Of a stretch of DNA of 64,000 nt, positions 49,547 to 61,665 are shown piece by piece. A model generated the notes under the pieces. It was given only the letters and a program-made list of their open reading frames with translations, was not told the origin of the DNA and ran no database searches. Position 1 is the stretch's first letter. Each line of letters begins with the position of its first letter. Origin of the DNA: Alphaproteobacteria bacterium (GTDB lineage Bacteria > Pseudomonadota > Alphaproteobacteria > Micavibrionales > SZUA-601); the NCBI GenBank assembly GCA_965246875.1, contig CBDFFU010000006.1, positions 133,664-197,663 of the forward strand. Reading direction: 5' to 3'. The position numbers were made by a program, and so were the translations under genes.

Positions 49547-51052
49547 TTACGCCTTGTTCCGCATCGTCGGGAAGGCAATGACGTCGCGGATGCTTTGGCT
49601 GTTGGTCAACAACATAACCATCCGGTCGATGCCGATACCTAAACCACCTGTTGGTGGCATGCCGAACTCCAATGCCGTCACAAAATCCAGATCCAGATAT
49701 TGCGCTTCGTCATGACCGGCTTCGCGTTTGGCCACCTGATCGGCGAAACGCTCATATTGGTCGATCGGATCGTTGAGTTCCGAAAAGGCATTGGCGATTT
49801 CCCAGCCGTTGACATACGATTCAAAGCGTTCCGTCAAGCGCGGCTCGTTGCGATGCACTTTGGCGAGTGGTGAAATATCGCGCGGCAAGTCGGTCACATG
49901 AATTGGTTGAATGAGTGTATGTTCCACTTTCTCGCCGAAGAACACTTCAACGATCTCGCCCCATGTCATGAACTTCTCGACATGAATCTTGTGCTCTTTC
50001 GCAACCTTGCGTGCTTCGTCATCGGTCGTAATCGTCATGAAATCAACACCGGTAACCTCTTTGACCAGGTCGACCATGCGCTTGCGTGGCCAGCCAGTGG
50101 CAAAGCTGATTTGCTTGTCGCCATAGGCAATGTCCAGCGAACCATTCGCGGCCAGACATGCATTGGCGACGATCTCTTCGGTAATGTCCATGATGTCATG
50201 ATAATCCGTATAGGCGACATACAATTCCAGCATGGTGAATTCCGGATTGTGCTTGACAGACGTGCCCTCATTGCGAAACACGCGGCCGATTTCATACACG
50301 CCATCGGCCAACCCGCCTACAATCAAACGCTTGAGGTGCAATTCCAAGGCAATGCGCAAAGACAGCGGCATATCCAAAGCATTGTGATGCGTCATAAACG
50401 GTTTCGCTGTCGTGCCACCGGGAATGACATGCAACGCCGGCGTTTCGACCTCGATGTACTCTTTGGCATTCAACGTTTCACGCACCGACTGAATGATGCG
50501 CGAGCGCTTGCGCAAGGTGTCGCGGCTGTCTTCGTTCGCGATCAAATCGGCATAACGCTGGCGGTAACGCTGTTCAATGTCGCTCAAGCCATGATATTTT
50601 TCCGGCATTGGCTGCAATGATTTTGTCAGCAGCGTCACTTTTTTTGCATTAACTGTTAATTCGCCACGCGGTGTGCGGCGAACAATGCCGGTGACACCAA
50701 TAATATCGCCTAAGTCCAGATGCGCGATTTGTTCCAGTTGATCGGCATCCAGATCCTGCTTGTGGCAAAAAATCTGCACCTTGTCGGTGACATCTGATAG
50801 ATCAATAAACATGCCGGAATTGCGATAAGCTGTAATCCGTCCGGCCACAGTTACGGTGTCTTCCGTCACATCGCCATCGGCCAATTCTTTATACTTATCA
50901 TGCAATGCATTGGCCTTGCTATCGGGCTTGAAGGAATGCGGATACGGGTCAATGCCTTTCCCTTTGAAATAGCTGAGATTGTGCAGTTTGCCGTCGCGGA
51001 CGATGTTGCTGTCCAGTCCGTTGATCAATTGCGGCGCGGAAGTATCGGTCAT
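49547..51052 (-). CDS. lysS: Lysine--tRNA ligase, class II
   Basis: OB-fold N-terminus, RYRQRYADL, EVETP, LRIALELHLKRLIVGG, FRNEG...HNPEF, GMPPTGGLGIGIDR. Confidence 0.96.
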   Translation of the reverse strand: MTDTSAPQLINGLDSNIVRDGKLHNLSYFKGKGIDPYPHSFKPDSKANALHDKYKELADGDVTEDTVTVAGRITAYRNSGMFIDLSDVTDKVQIFCHKQDLDADQLEQIAHLDLGDIIGVTGIVRRTPRGELTVNAKKVTLLTKSLQPMPEKYHGLSDIEQRYRQRYADLIANEDSRDTLRKRSRIIQSVRETLNAKEYIEVETPALHVIPGGTTAKPFMTHHNALDMPLSLRIALELHLKRLIVGGLADGVYEIGRVFRNEGTSVKHNPEFTMLELYVAYTDYHDIMDITEEIVANACLAANGSLDIAYGDKQISFATGWPRKRMVDLVKEVTGVDFMTITTDDEARKVAKEHKIHVEKFMTWGEIVEVFFGEKVEHTLIQPIHVTDLPRDISPLAKVHRNEPRLTERFESYVNGWEIANAFSELNDPIDQYERFADQVAKREAGHDEAQYLDLDFVTALEFGMPPTGGLGIGIDRMVMLLTNSQSIRDVIAFPTMRNKA

Positions 51053-51096
51053 GTGGTCTATCCCGTTAAACGTATAATACCCAACAGTTTAAAGCC

Positions 51097-51387
51097 TCAA
51101 TTGCAAAGGTCAAAGGCTTCACAGGCTTTTTGGCGGTATAACGTCAGGGTTTCGCCATGCAGCCGCAACCGGTGCCAGCGATAAGGGTGAGGGCGCAACC
51201 GCCAATTCCCGATGATGGACAAGACATTTAAAATGCGGTTGTGAAAATTAGCCTCCGCACGGCGGGCGAGAGTGTTGGTATAGGCTGCCATGTCCGCATA
51301 GCGCGACTGGGCAATAAATTCTGGCGGAATAAAGCCGTCATACTGGTTTTCAAGCGAGCGAAATGGCGTAACACCGGGAGGCAACAT
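51097..51387 (-). CDS. Hypothetical protein, 96 aa
   Basis: GGAG RBS 7 nt before ATG; co-oriented directly downstream of the HTH-S24 repressor. Confidence 0.6.
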   Translation of the reverse strand: MLPPGVTPFRSLENQYDGFIPPEFIAQSRYADMAAYTNTLARRAEANFHNRILNVLSIIGNWRLRPHPYRWHRLRLHGETLTLYRQKACEAFDLCN

Positions 51388-51432: not shown

Positions 51433-52119
51433 TTATTGGCTGACCCACAGAATACGGGCGATCCAGGCCACATCCTTGCGCGGCAACGGGATATCATCGA
51501 AATGATCGTTCAGCGATTTCAGTGTGATTTGCGTCGGGCTGAGACGCGCCAGATGTTTGGCCATCACTTCGCCTTTTTTCGTGCGCACCACAACACGATC
51601 ACCACGGCGCAATTGCGTGGGGTTTGGTGAGACGATCAGGATATCGCCATCACGATACAACGGTTCCATCGAATCACCGGCGACTTCCAATGCGTAAATT
51701 GAGGGGTCATCCAGTTTGGGAAACTCGATGGTATCCCAGCCAGCGCCTGCCGGGTAACCGGCATCGTCGAAAAACCCAGCCTGGCCCGCTTGCGCGCAGC
51801 CGATAATCGGAATGTGGCGCAACGTGCGCGACCCGGTATCGCTTTGTTCACCGCGAATAAAACCAGCAATCGTGTCCAGCGACTCACCCGTAATGTCCAG
51901 AATTTTCGACAGCGATTCGGTCGATGGCCAACGGGGGCGGCCTTCCGGTGTCGCACGTTTGCTGGGGTTAAACGATGTCGGGTCAAGGCCCGCGCGGCGC
52001 GCCAATCCAGAGGCCGACAAACCGTGGCTTTCGGCCAGCAAATCAATCGCGCGCCAGATATCGTCATGATGCAAACCCTGTTGCGCAACCGTTTCATCTT
52101 TGTCTTTGCGTTTTGCCAC
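51433..52119 (-). CDS. HTH + peptidase S24 (LexA/CI-like) transcriptional repressor, RogA-like
   Basis: IWRAIDLLAESHGLSASGLARRAGLDPTSFNPSKR...RPRWPSTESLSKIL; S24 domain with VAGDSMEP (Ser) and VMAKHL (Lys). Confidence 0.88.
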   Translation of the reverse strand: MAKRKDKDETVAQQGLHHDDIWRAIDLLAESHGLSASGLARRAGLDPTSFNPSKRATPEGRPRWPSTESLSKILDITGESLDTIAGFIRGEQSDTGSRTLRHIPIIGCAQAGQAGFFDDAGYPAGAGWDTIEFPKLDDPSIYALEVAGDSMEPLYRDGDILIVSPNPTQLRRGDRVVVRTKKGEVMAKHLARLSPTQITLKSLNDHFDDIPLPRKDVAWIARILWVSQ

Positions 52120-52155
52120 GTTGTCTCTCCCATTGGCACATCGTCACAACTTAAA

Positions 52156-52238
52156 TAGGAATATAATCTTTTTTATGCTTGACGTAGGAATAAATTCATA
52201 GTAGAAAGGATTATCTTCATAATATAGGACGGCTGTCA
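52156..52238. promoter_or_regulatory. Four operator-like boxes over the divergent promoter region
   Basis: GGAA-TATA-ATCT (52158), GGAA-TAAA-TTCA (52187), GGAT-TATC-TTCA (52208), GGAC-GGCT-GTCA (52227); TTGACG -35 candidate at 52179. Confidence 0.55.
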
Positions 52239-52293
52239 GGAAATCAAGCGAAAATTTCATCACAGCCGCCTGCCAATCACGGGGGAATCGACC

Positions 52294-52734
52294 ATGCGGA
52301 TGACAAAAATCAAGGTGCCAATGGTAGCTGCACAACACGCGAACCAACTGGGTGAGCCACGCGAAGCGTGGGTGTGTTTTACCGGCGAAACGGAACTGTG
52401 GTGGCTGCATGCTCTGAAAAAGGGCTTTCGCCATTGTTTCGTCATCGCGCGCAACGCCGACCATTGGCTGGCCATAGACCCGCTCTCGCCACATTTGGAG
52501 ATTACCATCCTGCCGATTCCACAGGCGTTCGATTTGCCACGCTGGCTGGAAAAAAATGGGGTGACCCTGTCGCGGGCCGCAATTCGCCGGGACCAGCATA
52601 AATCGGCCCCGCTGTTTTTGTGTTCCTGCGTCGAGGTCATCAAACGCTTTCTCGGCATTCACAACCGCTCAATTGTCACGCCGCACCAACTGTATCAATT
52701 CCTGATCCAGCAAAACGCGTTGCTGCCCAGCTAA
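52294..52734 (+). CDS. Phage-module protein, putative permuted papain-like (His before Cys) peptidase
   Basis: GFRHCFV ... CSCVEVIKRFLG ... TPHQLY; GGGGGA RBS; first gene of the portal operon. Confidence 0.55.
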   Translation: MRMTKIKVPMVAAQHANQLGEPREAWVCFTGETELWWLHALKKGFRHCFVIARNADHWLAIDPLSPHLEITILPIPQAFDLPRWLEKNGVTLSRAAIRRDQHKSAPLFLCSCVEVIKRFLGIHNRSIVTPHQLYQFLIQQNALLPS

Positions 52735-52761
52735 TTTCACGCCACTTTTATGAGGTTCATC

Positions 52762-53064
52762 ATGGCCAAAATTGTCTCTGCCGTCCCAAAACTTTTAACT
52801 GCCACGCTTGGTGGCCTGGCCAGTAACCCGCCAAAACCGGTGGCAATGACGCCGGCTGTCGCCACGACCGTCACGCCTGCAACGGCGGAGATAAAGTCAA
52901 ACACTGATATTGCCGGACCGGATTTGTCTGATGATCTTGCCAAGGATCTGGGCGGCATTGACGCGCGCAGCAAAGGCCGCGTCGGCACGATCACCACATC
53001 GTTTCGTGGCGTGTTGAATGACACCCACAACGCGCTGCCACGCCGCACCTTGTTGGGAGAATAA
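52762..53064 (+). CDS. Small podoviral pre-portal virion protein (T7 gp7.3-like position)
   Basis: Low-complexity Ala/Thr/Pro N-terminus; C-terminal KGRVGTITTSFRGVL...RRTLLGE; directly before the portal. Confidence 0.6.
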   Translation: MAKIVSAVPKLLTATLGGLASNPPKPVAMTPAVATTVTPATAEIKSNTDIAGPDLSDDLAKDLGGIDARSKGRVGTITTSFRGVLNDTHNALPRRTLLGE

Positions 53065-53065
53065 A

Positions 53066-54535
53066 ATGGAACCATCACATGTCATGGATGCAACGCGTTT
53101 AAGTGCGTTGTATCACGATGCGAAAACGGCGCGTGAACCGTGGGACAGTCTGTGGCAGGATTGTTATGATTACGCCCTGCCGACGCGCACAACCCAAAAT
53201 GGTTTGCAACGCAGCTGGCGGCAGGCCTATCAGCATTTATACGATGCAACCGCCGCTGATGCGGTTGATCAATTAGCGGCATGTTTGTTGTCGCAACTGG
53301 TGCCGCCCTGGTCACCGTGGGTCGAAATCGCGGCGGGTCCGGCATTAACGGATGACGAAAAAACGCGTATCGCGCCAACGCTGCAAACTGTCAACCGCAT
53401 GCTGCACGATCAATTGCGGCACAGTAATTTTACCGTAGAATTGCATCAGGCGTTGCTTGATATGGTGACGATCGGCACGGCCTGCTTGTGGGTCGGACGC
53501 AATGTGCCGGGACAACTCAGCGCCTTGAATTTTCAAACCGTACCGCTTAATCAATTCTTTGTGCTGGGCCATGATTTGCAGCATTTGTTTATGCCGTTTC
53601 ATTGGACAGTCAGCAAAGTGCGGCAAACCTTTTCAGGTGTTAATGTGCCCGAGACACTGGCGGAAACAGATATGATCGAGGGTGTCTATGCCGTCATCCG
53701 CGAAGAACATGCCTGCCATCAGTGTGTCATCATGAATCCATCCGCCACACCGGAGATTATCTGGCAGGAGGTGTCAGAATTTTCACCGTTCATGCCATTC
53801 CGCTGGCAAAAAACTGCCGGGGAGATATATGGCCGCTCCCCGGTGATGAAAGCCTTGCCCGACATCAAAACGGCCAACAAAGTGGTTGAGCTGGTGTTAA
53901 AAAATGCATCAATTGCGGTCACCGGGATTTGGCAGGCGGATGATGACGGTGTGCTGAATCCCGCCAACATCAAATTGACGCCAGGCACGATTATTCCCAA
54001 AGCCGTTGGCTCGTCCGGTTTGACGCCACTGAAAATGCCTGGAAATTTTGATCTGTCGCAATTGGTGCTGAACGATTTGCGCCAGCGGATTAAACAGGCG
54101 TTACTGGCTGACCGCTTGGGTGCAACGCCGGGCAAACGCATGACGGCGACAGAAATTCTGGAGCGCAATGCCGATATGGTGCGTGCACTCAGCGCCGTTT
54201 ACAACCGGCTGCAAAGCGAATTGCTGGTGCCACTGGTCACACAGATTATATCGGTATTGAAACAGCGCGGCGATTGTCCGGACATCATGCTGGACGGTCA
54301 ATATTTCACGCTGAATTTTCTCTCGCCTTTGGGCCGCGCGCAACAACAGGATGATGTGCAAGCGACATTAAACTGGCTGATGACGGCACAGCAATTTGGT
54401 GCCGAGGCGTTATCCAACATCAATGTGCCACACATGGTGTCGTGGCTTGGCCAGCAACTGGGTGTGCCGGCGCATCTGCTGACGCCGCCTGTACCCGTTT
54501 CACTACCAGCGGAGATCATCCATGAAACAGCCTGA
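53066..54535 (+). CDS. Podovirus-type portal / head-tail connector protein
   Basis: HLYDATA..AVDQLA, ELHQALLDMVTIGTAC, RWQKTAGEIYGRSPVMKALPDIKTAN, MTATEILER, LQSELLVPL (T7 gp8-like connector motifs). Confidence 0.88.
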   Translation: MEPSHVMDATRLSALYHDAKTAREPWDSLWQDCYDYALPTRTTQNGLQRSWRQAYQHLYDATAADAVDQLAACLLSQLVPPWSPWVEIAAGPALTDDEKTRIAPTLQTVNRMLHDQLRHSNFTVELHQALLDMVTIGTACLWVGRNVPGQLSALNFQTVPLNQFFVLGHDLQHLFMPFHWTVSKVRQTFSGVNVPETLAETDMIEGVYAVIREEHACHQCVIMNPSATPEIIWQEVSEFSPFMPFRWQKTAGEIYGRSPVMKALPDIKTANKVVELVLKNASIAVTGIWQADDDGVLNPANIKLTPGTIIPKAVGSSGLTPLKMPGNFDLSQLVLNDLRQRIKQALLADRLGATPGKRMTATEILERNADMVRALSAVYNRLQSELLVPLVTQIISVLKQRGDCPDIMLDGQYFTLNFLSPLGRAQQQDDVQATLNWLMTAQQFGAEALSNINVPHMVSWLGQQLGVPAHLLTPPVPVSLPAEIIHETA

Positions 54536-54818
54536 GTCACACCAAATGGAACAACGATCAGCGTTGCGGAAATTCCTGTTCGGCAATCTGCCGCCGGACG
54601 ATATCAGTAAAGCCTATGCACGCTGTTTCAACGGCCGTGACGGGCAGACAGTGCTGGAGCATCTGCACCAGATCACGCTGTTCCGCATCACTGATCCGAC
54701 CATGGACCCGACGGCGTTACGCCAGCTGGAAGGCCAACGCCAATTGGTGTTGTTCATGTGCCAGCAAATCGCCAAGGCCAGCCATGGTGTGCCCACACCA
54801 GCAAAAGGACAGGCATGA
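54522..54818 (+). CDS. Bbp19-like phage protein
   Basis: YARCFNGRDGQTVLEHL...LRQLEGQRQLVLFM, typical of the small gene after BPP-1-like portals. Confidence 0.7.
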   Translation: MKQPESHQMEQRSALRKFLFGNLPPDDISKAYARCFNGRDGQTVLEHLHQITLFRITDPTMDPTALRQLEGQRQLVLFMCQQIAKASHGVPTPAKGQA

Positions 54819-54854
54819 CACATTTTTAATTCACAACCAACGGGGGATACGACC

Positions 54855-54959
54855 ATGACAGACAACCAGATACGCCGCACGGAAACGATGCTGCGCACCT
54901 TTCTTTCCCACATCTTCTTTCACAATGGAGACCTGATATGCAAGAAGACAATCTCTTGA
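54855..54959 (+). CDS. Possible 34-aa small ORF
   Basis: GGGGGA RBS; MTDNQIRRTETMLRTFLSHIFFHNGDLICKKTIS*; overlaps the scaffold start. Confidence 0.3.
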   Translation: MTDNQIRRTETMLRTFLSHIFFHNGDLICKKTIS

Positions 54960-55639
54960 TTGCCACACACGATGCAGCAGACGTTGCACCGAAAAACGCG
55001 TCTGCTAAATTGACTGTTCCTGAAAAATTCTGGGACAAGGAGAAACAGGAAGTCCGCATCGACGCCTTGTTAAAATCCTATCTTGAGCTGGAGAAGAAAT
55101 TCTCGGCGAATGAAAAGGCAAAACCGGCCGTGCCAGACACGCCGCGTGACTATAGCGTCAAACTGGAACATGATTTGTTTACAACCGACGACGAAATCAA
55201 CGATCGTTTGCATCAAGCCGGCTTTACCGATACGCAAGTGCAATTGGTCTATGATCTGGCTACCGAAAAAATGGTGCCGCTGATCATTGAGTTGGCGCGC
55301 GATTTTGAAGCCGACCGTGAGATCGAAAAACTGGTCAAGACATTCGGCGGCATGGATAAATGGCGCGCAGTGTCCAAACAGCTTTTGGCCTATGGCCAGA
55401 AACATCTGCCAGCCGATGTCGTCAACGGTTTGTCTGGCTCCTATGAAGGCGTCATGGCGTTATACCGCATGATGCAAAGCGGTGCTAATCCAAACATGCA
55501 GGATAATGTGACAATTGATGGTGCCGTCGACGAAAAAGGCCTGAAAAAGATGATGCAGGACCCGAAATACTGGCGCGACCGCGATGCCGAGATGGTGAAG
55601 AAGGTAACCGCCGGGTTCAAGCAAATTTTTAATAATTAG
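54938..55639 (+). CDS. Putative podoviral capsid scaffolding protein
   Basis: PEKFWD...DALLKSYLELEKK; acidic helical core; C-terminal MMQDPKYWRDRD...VKKV...F. Confidence 0.7.
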   Translation: MQEDNLLIATHDAADVAPKNASAKLTVPEKFWDKEKQEVRIDALLKSYLELEKKFSANEKAKPAVPDTPRDYSVKLEHDLFTTDDEINDRLHQAGFTDTQVQLVYDLATEKMVPLIIELARDFEADREIEKLVKTFGGMDKWRAVSKQLLAYGQKHLPADVVNGLSGSYEGVMALYRMMQSGANPNMQDNVTIDGAVDEKGLKKMMQDPKYWRDRDAEMVKKVTAGFKQIFNN

Positions 55640-59320: not shown

Positions 59321-60527
59321 ATTGTGAGATAGATTATGATTTATAATTCAGATGCGGATCAACATGATGACGATCCATATAAAAACGATGAACTAATTGT
59401 AAATGTCAAAAAAAATGGCATGAGTTTGAAATTTGATTGGAAATCGTTTGGCACAGAATTGAATAATAAACTAGAAGACATACCATTTGCTGCTGAAAAG
59501 TTAGACTATCTGATAGCTGTCAATGATGCTGTTGGGTACATCAAACCGATTATAGAAGTTACTATCCCAATTATGATGTCTTTATATGACGACTTTGTAA
59601 GTATAGAGGATAAAGTTAGGTGTGCGGGCTTTGTTTGCAGTTATTCGGCGAATAAAAATTTTCGTCAGCAAGGCTTAAACATACTAGAAGAAAATTACGA
59701 TTCATGTTTCGACACTGGATTTAGAATTACGGCTTTAACAAATCTGCTTAATGACGACCGTCCAAGACACAGGACACAGACAGAACATTATAACAAACAA
59801 GTTGATTATTATAATGAATGGACTACTTTGATCGAGGAAGAGGATGAGCCTAAAGATAAAGCGTTTTCGGCTTATCTCCTGCTTGAGCCTATGAAGCTCT
59901 GTAATATTTTTAAAGCACCTTTGTTAAGTATGATTATTAATAATCTCGATTTTTGTGAAGACTTGGATAATAAAATAGACATCATTACGTTTTGCAATCG
60001 AGAGTTTGAAAATAAGTCTGGAAAAAAAGGCTATATAAACTCAAAAGCAAACAAAACCTTTTTTCCAACTGCATCTAATTTTGATTGGGAGAGCCGGTTT
60101 CTGGATGCTGGATTTCAATTGATGCACAAAACAGGTTATAATGCAGCTATAAAATTTATGTGTTCTCGCGTTGCTGAATGCGACCATCAAGACTGGGTTC
60201 ATAGGGCATATGGTATATTCGACTTTTTATGTGATACATTTGCAGAAAAAGAATATTCACCTTTAGCAGATCTTTTGAGTGTTGAAAAAGGATTTATAAG
60301 CAAATCTGTCCAACAACCTTTTGATTTAATAAAGCAAAGCGACACGTATCTCAATTGGGCCAAAAATTTAAAAAAGAAAGCGCACAAAGATGGTCTAATT
60401 AGTGAATTAAATGCGTTTGAAAATTTACGGTCTAGCTACCAGCATGTGAAGGACATCTCCAAACAAGAAGCTGAAAATAATTCATTAGTTTTGCAAGCTT
60501 CGCTCACAACGTTTAAATATAATTTTT

Positions 60528-61231
60528 GGGGCTGGTATAGATTAGCTGAGTTTAGCCCATAGCTTGAGAGTTGTCAGCTGGCTTTTGGGTGAGCCGTAAT
60601 TGAAGCGGAAGACACATTCCTGAAGGAAGTAAGCGAAGTTCTGTTTCGGGATGCCGTTGTATTTGCGCAAAACTCGTTTTGATTGATTCCAGAAGTTTTC
60701 AATCCCATTGATGTGATTAGTTTTATCAGCGAACAGTTCGCTGTGATTGATGCGATAATGTTTAAACTCAGAGACATCTAGCACGTTATACGAACGATAG
60801 CTGTCCGTGTAGACGATGCTATCAGGCTGGATTTTACGGCGTATAACCGGCATGAGCGTCCGGCTTTTTGTATCGTCGACCATGGCGGCATAGACTTTAC
60901 CACCCCGCTTGAGCAGGCCGAAAACAGGAACCTTGCCGGCAGCACCTCGGCCTCGCTTGCCCTTTCGGACACCGCCAAAGTAACTCTCGTCAAGCTCAAT
61001 CTCGCCGTCGAATGGCTCTTCATCGATCATTTTATCGCTGATCAGGACACGCAATTTATGATAAAACAAGTGGGCCGTATGATAGTTGATACCGACCAGA
61101 TCAGCAGCTGTTCGGGCCGTTACCTGGCCGACGAACATCTCCAGCAGCTTTAACTGAATTTTATGCGATAATTTACAACGATTTAATCCCATCACACCAG
61201 CATAAATTAGATCCTAATCTATACCAGCCCC
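60528..61231 (-). mobile_element. IS1595-family insertion sequence (IS1016-like), 704 bp
   Basis: Perfect 18-bp TIRs GGGGCTGGTATAGATTAG (60528-60545) / CTAATCTATACCAGCCCC (61214-61231); 8-bp TSD TAATTTTT (60520-60527, 61232-61239). Confidence 0.95.
60542..61195 (-). CDS. IS1595-family DDE transposase
   Basis: IELDESYFGG, VYTDSYRSY, HINGIENFWNQSKR, LQECVFRFN. Confidence 0.93.
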   Translation of the reverse strand: MMGLNRCKLSHKIQLKLLEMFVGQVTARTAADLVGINYHTAHLFYHKLRVLISDKMIDEEPFDGEIELDESYFGGVRKGKRGRGAAGKVPVFGLLKRGGKVYAAMVDDTKSRTLMPVIRRKIQPDSIVYTDSYRSYNVLDVSEFKHYRINHSELFADKTNHINGIENFWNQSKRVLRKYNGIPKQNFAYFLQECVFRFNYGSPKSQLTTLKLWAKLS

Positions 61232-61665
61232 TAATTTTTTTTTAATGACAGCAATGACCGGGAAAATAAATTCAACAGAAGATGAATTCTTAAAAAGTAC
61301 CGAAAACAAAAAAAGCGATCGCGCCATGTTTGCTTATGGACGCGCAGAATTAGTTAAAAACGAGTTGATACACGAGCATCTTGTTGATCAGATTTCCTTG
61401 GTTACTGCGCAAAAACAGATAATTGATGATTCTATTCCATATCGCAAATGTGAAACGACTGATTCAAAACAAAAAGCCTTAATAAGGTTGGAAAAAATTG
61501 AAAATCTAGATTTTAGTCCTTACCCATTTGCGCATGCATCAAAGCTTACAATATCACAAGAATTTTCGGTTAAAGAATGGTTTGATGTAGATGATCATGA
61601 TAAAAGCTTGGTGTCATTTGCGGTGTTGCCTTTAAATCCCCGTTTGAATTAGAATTATTTAGCGA

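Follow-up and report, generated by a model that had tools for sequence, protein, structure and literature searches.

The gene at positions 51433..52119 (minus strand) of the DNA stretch analysed here encodes an orthologue of RogA, the repressor at the head of gene transfer agent (GTA) control in Caulobacter. The whole stretch of 64,000 nucleotides, called the window in the following, covers positions 133,664 to 197,663 of contig CBDFFU010000006.1 (GenBank assembly GCA_965246875.1), from an alphaproteobacterium of the Micavibrionales. The protein probably represents an ancestral, cleavable, CI-like form of RogA that silences dispersed particle genes of the T7/BPP-1 type directly, without an activator of the GafY/GafZ type. 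The CI-style repression of these particle genes is a prediction from sequence and as such well supported in silico. RogA of Caulobacter crescentus (CCNA_00080) is a protein of 213 amino acids (aa) that combines a helix-turn-helix (HTH) with a LexA/CI-like domain devoid of the key catalytic residues; its targets are PgafYZ and the promoter of CCNA_02002 only (PMC9632790). RogA represses gafYZ, the products of which activate the GTA genes (Gozzi et al., 2022, PMC9632790; Tran and Le, 2024, PMC11150451).

The Caulobacter protein was located via primers listed in an S3 Table (PMC9632790). An exact-pattern scan of genome contigs with these primers led to Caulobacter vibrioides DSM 9893. The open reading frame (ORF) found there has 213 aa, starts with MATLSHGEIW and ends with IVWVSQ before the stop codon, matching the primers. 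BLASTP aligned the repressor of the window with RogA over the full length, with 51% identity over 214 aa (E 2e-68). RogA as query retrieved the repressor ORF as sole match in the genome (4e-59), and the repressor as query retrieved the RogA locus from the Caulobacter genome (5.9e-60), the next best match being at 4.7e-5. The family tree, with 108 members, places RogA inside the core group, among proteins bearing Ser and Lys at the catalytic positions. A preliminary description of the window had proposed a RogA-like identity, which is borne out by the mutual best hits and by the nesting of RogA in the family tree. Its portrayal of RogA as an HTH and LexA-like protein acting through GafY and GafZ agrees with the published work (PMC9632790).

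The repressor has 228 aa and is encoded by a single-copy gene with a GTG start, preceded by a Shine-Dalgarno-like GGGAGA. An alternative start, TTG at codon 16, would fit the N-termini of homologues; of the two, the GTG at 52119 is preceded by the better ribosome-binding sequence. The earlier reading of an HTH-S24 reading frame with the signature DIWRAIDLLAESHGLSASGLARRAGLDPTSFNPSKRATPEGRPRWPSTES and retained Ser and Lys residues was confirmed in each part. Ser150, in GDSME (codon 51670..51672, minus strand), is invariant in alignment A2, and Lys188, in MAKHL (codon 51556..51558, minus strand), is nearly so; both were assigned by reading of the sequence. A putative self-cleavage site, Ala111-Gly112 within AQAG (51784..51789, minus strand), was assigned from alignment A2 and from its covariation with the Ser/Lys dyad. 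All four residues, A109, Q110, A111 and G112, are invariant in this alignment. The Pfam family Peptidase_S24 covers residues 104-223 (E = 1.2e-23), and the PHROG family phrog_4, 'transcriptional repressor', matched at 3.9e-28.

The N-terminal part of the protein had been called an XRE-like HTH. No Pfam HTH model matched the repressor at E 0.01 or better, while HTH_26 was found on two homologues. A sequence search of the PDB gave no match. Structure prediction supports a helical head. The AlphaFold model has a mean predicted local distance difference test (pLDDT) score of 80, which exceeds 90 in a head of five helices at residues 18-88. This HTH domain (51856..52068, minus strand) was delimited by pLDDT, Foldseek and alignment A2. 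Residues 108-127 form a disordered loop of low confidence, which contains the Ala-Gly site, and the tail is rich in beta structure. Foldseek with the whole model returned the full-length lambda repressor as top solved structure (3bdn_A, 1.4e-8), followed by LexA and 186 CI. The XRE-like reading is therefore taken from the model and from the structural match to the lambda repressor. A candidate recognition helix lies within LDPTSFNPSKR, a segment almost the same as its counterpart LDPTSFNRSKR in Caulobacter RogA. Invariant HTH residues in alignment A2 are G44, L45, T48, F50, N51, K54 and R55.

An identity of the protein with LexA itself was ruled out. The NCBIfam model lexA (TIGR00498) scores 29.6 bits on the repressor, at a cutoff of 110.95. 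A separate LexA-like ORF is present at C6:646589-647293, found with an E. coli LexA sequence as query. A second, weak HTH/S24-like ORF (C6:22680-23444) matched RogA at E 0.022, and a GDSM motif is not obvious in it. The genome contains recA.

The repressor gene stands head-to-head with a phage-type module, an operon of five genes at 52294..55639 (plus strand) recognized by Pfam and PHROG profiles. It comprises orf146 (52294-52734, with ATG at 52294), orf104 (52750-53064), a T7-type portal gene (53018-54535; PF12236, 2.3e-105), a Bbp19-like gene (54522-54818) and a T7-type scaffold gene (54938-55639), all on the plus strand; orf146 and orf104 have no family match. The gap between the divergent genes, previously given as about 175 bp, spans 52120-52293 and has 174 bp.

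The published RogA operator is an inverted repeat, GGAA-N4-TTCC (PMC9632790). Two PgafYZ sites, tAGGAATATCTTCCTc and cGGAATATAAACCTa, were obtained from surface plasmon resonance probe sequences and the DSM 9893 locus; the latter abuts a TATAGT -10 hexamer. A position matrix was trained on these two Caulobacter sites and on three promoters of the present genome, the region of the finding being left out. In a scan of 2.18 million genome positions, only 76 positions reached at least 11 bits, and the gap is the sole 174-bp interval genome-wide that holds three such matches. Operator box 1 (TAGGAATATAATCTTT, 52156..52171) scored 16.9 bits and ranks 18th among the 2.18 million positions. Box 2 (TAGGAATAAATTCATA, 52185..52200) scored 17.1 bits (rank 17), and box 3 (AAGGATTATCTTCATA, 52206..52221) scored 14.8 bits (rank 26); none of the boxes is assigned to a strand. 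A weak box 4 (AGGACGGCTGTCAG, 52226..52239), of which only the left half-site is present, lies over the -35 of the repressor promoter. It is doubtful, because it received no score in the matrix scan.

A promoter scan yielded a candidate repressor promoter, CTGACA(52239)-18-GATAAT(52210) (52210..52239, minus strand, 10/12 matches), and a candidate module promoter, TTCATA(52195)-17-CATAAT(52223) (52195..52223, plus strand, 9/12 matches). The latter may alternatively be read as TTGACG(52178)-17-TAGAAA, with box 2 filling the spacer. Box 2 overlaps the module -35 and box 3 overlaps the -10 of both promoters, wherefore repression of the operon together with autoregulation is predicted. Box 3 ends at the module -10, in the same geometry as at the other box-bearing promoters and at Caulobacter PgafYZ. 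The suggestion that the gap acts as regulatory region gains support from these three operator matches over both divergent promoters. Between the operators and the start of orf146, a 15-nt inverted repeat (CGGCTGTCAGGAAAT / ATTTCATCACAGCCG, 52230-52268) is 87% complementary with a spacing of 9 nt and would allow the leader of the module mRNA to fold into a hairpin.

The same operator recurs at particle genes elsewhere in the genome, which comprises 2.18 Mb in 11 contigs and is 95.8% complete. No capsid gene is located within the window. A single capsid gene (PF19821) is present on another contig, with genes for tail tubular proteins A and B, a pectate-lyase-type tailspike, a T7-type TerL and a GTA_holin_3TM holin downstream. 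Two boxes stand before this gene set (C3:906260 and C3:906283). Its promoter reads TTGACA-TTTTAGGAATAATATCC-TAGGAT, the second box being 23 bp off. Box C6:14880 precedes the gene of a PG_binding (peptidoglycan-binding) protein of 126 aa, which shares 51% identity with a gene from within the contiguous module that the relative G006 carries. Box C3:139959 lies before a 112-aa ORF and a 506-aa SASA-esterase-domain protein, as in receptor-destroying fibres, and box C6:200350 before the gene of a 363-aa PG_binding/Mu-F-like head protein. At these four loci the -35 is TTGACA or TTGCAA, the box occupies the spacer of 17-18 nt, and the end of the box is the first T of a TAnnnT -10, similar to Caulobacter PgafYZ. 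Taken together, at least five dispersed loci with a common operator encode a full podovirus particle and lysis functions. Co-control of the five promoters by LexA was considered and rejected for this genome. A LexA box of the alphaproteobacterial type, GTTC-N7-GTTC or GAAC-N7-GAAC, was not found at any of them, even with one mismatch.

The pairing of repressor and portal operon extends across the class. Among 401 alphaproteobacterial genomes, 100 contain a full-length member of the repressor family. A T7-like portal gene is adjacent and divergent to the repressor gene in 43 of these, across a gap of 0.6-4.4 kb, and is absent genome-wide from 46. Nearly all genomes of the same order that possess both repressor and portal have them side by side in divergent orientation. 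The relative G006 carries a contiguous module with portal, scaffold, PG-binding gene, capsid, tail genes and holin; its lysyl-tRNA synthetase gene lies on the same side of the repressor, with 67% identity. Azospirillum brasilense (GCA_008365405.1; loci L128 and L129) has the same split half-module, in which repressor and portal-Bbp19-scaffold genes end after the scaffold. It is located beside succinate dehydrogenase genes, with orf146 and orf104 kept at the same place. Within 300 nt before the family repressor genes, 37 operator-like sites were counted, compared with 1 in gene-body controls. Mapped on the family tree, adjacency to the portal requires 21 changes, compared with 35.8 for shuffled labels (none of 500 shuffles was as low). 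Adjacent members are interleaved with non-adjacent ones, Caulobacter included, a pattern consistent with an ancient linkage that was lost repeatedly.

In several relatives of the order, the HTH head occurs in another context. In G025 (L004:14687-15619), a phosphoribosyltransferase domain (PF00156) is fused to the RogA-type head in place of S24. The RogA-type HTH heads in G019, G020, G025, G026 and G030 all adjoin a T7-like portal gene. These relatives seem to have exchanged the input domain of the switch; PF00156 was identified in G025 alone.

These data bear on the question of whether the repressor is simply the CI of an ordinary defective prophage, the decaying remnant of a temperate podovirus without host function. 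Such an origin would account for the phage-type character of every gene, the abrupt end of the operon after the scaffold, the truncated look of the capsid homologue in A. brasilense and one in-frame stop in the portals of a few relatives. It is nevertheless unlikely. The adjacency recurs in at least 43 genomes from many families, at portal identities of 46-51% and with mostly open frames. The genes are single copy, and the GC content is 0.53 compared with 0.495 for the genome. The host flank behind the repressor, a 96-aa ORF and lysyl-tRNA synthetase (49547..51387, minus strand), is conserved between genera in its synthetase gene, and no integrase, tRNA or replication genes were found near the repressor and the operon. 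Full-length particle genes, forming a complete set, are distributed over five loci with the operator kept at each, which drift would not maintain.

The check for gafY and gafZ proposed with the preliminary description found no homologue of either in this genome. Caulobacter GafY matched only the C-terminus of DnaA, and GafZ matched nothing better than E 0.6. An HK97-type capsid (PF05065) was not found in this genome, while the same search detected that of Caulobacter. Given the lack of GafY, GafZ and an HK97 capsid, direct CI-style control, as suggested in the preliminary description, is the simplest reading. In the class sample, GafZ homologues occur in 40/401 genomes. They are found in 0/43 genomes with a portal-adjacent repressor, in contrast to 23/57 other repressor-bearing genomes, and in 0/63 of all sampled genomes with a strong T7-like portal. 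Fisher's exact test for gafZ versus portal adjacency gave p = 2.8e-7, a value that is optimistic, because relatedness is ignored. In gafZ-positive genomes with both matches on one contig, repressor and gafZ are unlinked, as in Caulobacter. Depending on the lineage, the RogA-type repressor family is thus associated with one or the other of two virion types. In none of the 401 sampled genomes do gafZ and the T7-like portal module occur together. This mutual exclusion suggests that a change of virion type was accompanied by reuse of a single regulator family.

The precedent of a cascade from RogA via gafYZ to the GTA genes (PMC9632790; PMC11150451) raises the possibility of an indirect control, in which the repressor silences an unrecognised activator, e.g. 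orf146 or orf104, and this activator switches on the other loci. Both products are without family match and yet are conserved at the operon head. A RogA-type box is situated inside the core promoter of all four other loci, in the same geometry, and a GafY or GafZ homologue was not found. Moreover, the promoters have good TTGACA -35 hexamers and therefore do not look activator-dependent. An activator of this kind is accordingly improbable.

To our knowledge, RogA has been described from Caulobacter only, as an uncleavable repressor of two activator genes. Of 108 homologues, 70 have retained the Ser/Lys dyad. Dyad and Ala-Gly site occur together in 68 of these 108 proteins, both are missing from 30, and 10 are mixed. 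Such covariation is a signature of selection on autoproteolysis. Dyad retention does not track portal adjacency (36/49 adjacent versus 34/59 non-adjacent members). Caulobacter RogA has Asp at the position of Ser150, in GDDLA, and Arg at that of Lys188, and therefore cannot self-cleave. In repressor homologues from gafZ-bearing genomes, the dyad is kept in 22/23 cases. Since most family members have retained it, Caulobacter RogA is atypical and the loss of the dyad a peculiarity of Caulobacter. The repressor is probably inactivated in a RecA-dependent manner, and an SOS-type trigger of particle production is a testable idea.

The operator motif also occurs outside particle genes. Eleven dispersed 75-nt elements follow the pattern TTAGGAATrTATTCCTATAA-N5-TTGATTT-N9-AAAAGGGC-AAATGTTTCACGTGAAACATTT. 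Each element combines a perfect RogA-type palindrome, TAGGAATnTATTCCTA, with a perfect parS, TGTTTCACGTGAAACA, at a start-to-start distance of 48-52 nt. The copies are located at C3 positions 476607, 541037, 841741, 980384, 1095017 and 1215568 and at C6 positions 91137, 310175, 430347, 571933 and 719185. They hold 11 of the 14 parS sites of the genome, i.e. all outside one cluster of three. Nine of the 11 elements come immediately after the stop codon of a gene in the same orientation. The element was found in 0/30 relatives and is therefore uninformative on the repressor family as a whole. Possible readings are a mobile repeat specific to the lineage, sites that titrate the repressor, and a site of co-binding of repressor and ParB; in this genome, the repressor may dock beside ParB at the 11 elements. 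In addition, single RogA-type boxes were found upstream of uvrA, a Y-family (IMS) polymerase gene and a DUF763 gene (C3:306918, C6:657460 and C8:7953). These may be members of a DNA-damage-linked regulon or chance matches.

A role mainly as host DNA-damage or global regulator, i.e. as a second LexA-like factor with a merely historical adjacency to the module and with virion boxes as part of a wider regulon, would suit the boxes near uvrA and the polymerase gene, the 11 best genomic boxes unrelated to virion genes, the intact dyad beside recA and the 57/100 repressor-bearing genomes without module, but it is very improbable in view of the genome's own LexA, the low score of the lexA model on the repressor, the location of all five clustered or promoter-embedded sites at particle genes and a portal-operon adjacency far beyond chance.

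Several observations weigh against direct control of the particle genes by the repressor. In the gap itself, the right halves of the three boxes are degenerate, with TCTT or TCAT and not TTCC. In chromatin immunoprecipitation sequencing in Caulobacter, RogA gave no peak at its own promoter (PMC9632790). The best-scoring boxes of the genome sit in the 11 parS elements and not at virion genes, so that the motif may serve another factor or role, and weaker boxes lie near the uvrA, Y-family polymerase and DUF763 genes. The absence of gafYZ is not absolute, because the genome is 95.8% complete. Across the class, the module is not adjacent in 57/100 repressor-bearing genomes, and 34 of these 57 members also lack gafZ, which indicates functions of the family independent of the module. 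The capsid homologue of A. brasilense, encoded at another place in its genome, is an ORF of only 138 aa that looks truncated, and boxes near it are no commoner than in shuffled sequence.

The mechanism proposed for direct repression by the RogA orthologue is as follows. Repressor dimers would bind boxes of the GGAA-N4-TTCC type. By way of the three boxes in the gap, the repressor would shut off the portal-scaffold operon and regulate its own synthesis. At four or more other loci, it would act at a box in the spacer and at the -10 of sigma-70-type promoters. In this manner, one repressor would silence a dispersed, integrase-less, chromosomally inherited set of particle genes, without an activator of the GafY/GafZ type. 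DNA damage would most likely induce the genes, through RecA-stimulated self-cleavage of the repressor at Ala111-Gly112.

A wider evolutionary scenario is offered tentatively, as a possibility that falls short of being likely. A self-cleaving, DNA-damage-sensing RogA may ancestrally have been the direct master repressor, at every structural promoter, of a so far undescribed, vertically inherited podovirus-type (T7/BPP-1-like) particle of the Alphaproteobacteria, a second kind of GTA. Lineages with HK97-type particles would have rewired the repressor onto gafYZ, and the dyad-less RogA of Caulobacter would be a late form. Most family members keep the self-cleavage apparatus, and nearly half are head-to-head with a T7-like portal operon. 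The direct wiring is a possible ancestor of the Caulobacter cascade, and the particle genes are candidates for a second, podovirus-derived class of domesticated particle in the Alphaproteobacteria. If true, the reuse of the regulator would offer a rare case in which regulatory rewiring can be traced through the domestication of a phage.

Downstream of the divergent operon, a convergent PBP1A gene follows. Farther on in the window, a transposase gene of the IS1595 family (ISXO2-like, 60542-61195) lies between two unannotated ORFs (59336-60562 and 61245-61652).

The kind of regulator, RogA or CI, is known. New with respect to the searched literature are the predicted direct wiring without GafY and GafZ, the podovirus-type target, and the class-wide pairing together with the exclusion of gafZ. 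Literature searches for podovirus-type or T7-like GTAs and for RogA with a portal brought up no account of the pairing. The closest known system is RogA of Caulobacter. Both proteins have the IW.AID...GLDPTSFN.SKR...RWPSTES head, the ...WVSQ C-terminus and the length class in common. Predicted for the window repressor, and likewise in agreement with RogA, are an operator of the GGAA-N4-TTCC type, with a box abutting the -10 in the same way, and control of phage-derived particle genes. The two differ in the catalytic residues, with Asp and Arg in RogA and Ser150 and Lys188 in the window repressor. RogA acts via GafY and GafZ on an HK97-type, RcGTA-like siphovirus cluster, whereas gafYZ and the HK97 capsid are absent here. 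The boxes of the present genome are on the promoters of the structural genes themselves, the particle genes are T7/BPP-1-like, and the repressor gene is head-to-head with the portal operon.

Repressors of the lambda CI type (also 186 CI and 434 cI) provide the second comparison. The lambda repressor is the best structural match (3bdn_A), and a helical HTH head, an S24 tail, a Ser-Lys dyad and an Ala-Gly site are common to both proteins. As in these systems, the repressor gene is divergent from its target genes, which are predicted here, and several operators lie over two face-to-face promoters, with autoregulation likewise predicted. Unlike a lambda-type CI, the window repressor is encoded outside an excisable prophage, without integrase, replication or cro-like genes. 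Its predicted targets are late structural genes at no fewer than five chromosomal loci, not early lytic genes, and throughout a bacterial class its gene is passed on with the chromosome. LexA has the self-cleaving S24 C-terminal domain in common with the repressor and probably also the inactivation by way of RecA. The repressor differs from LexA in its N-terminus, which is CI-like and not a winged helix, in falling below the TIGR00498 cutoff, and in its occurrence beside a LexA of the genome's own.

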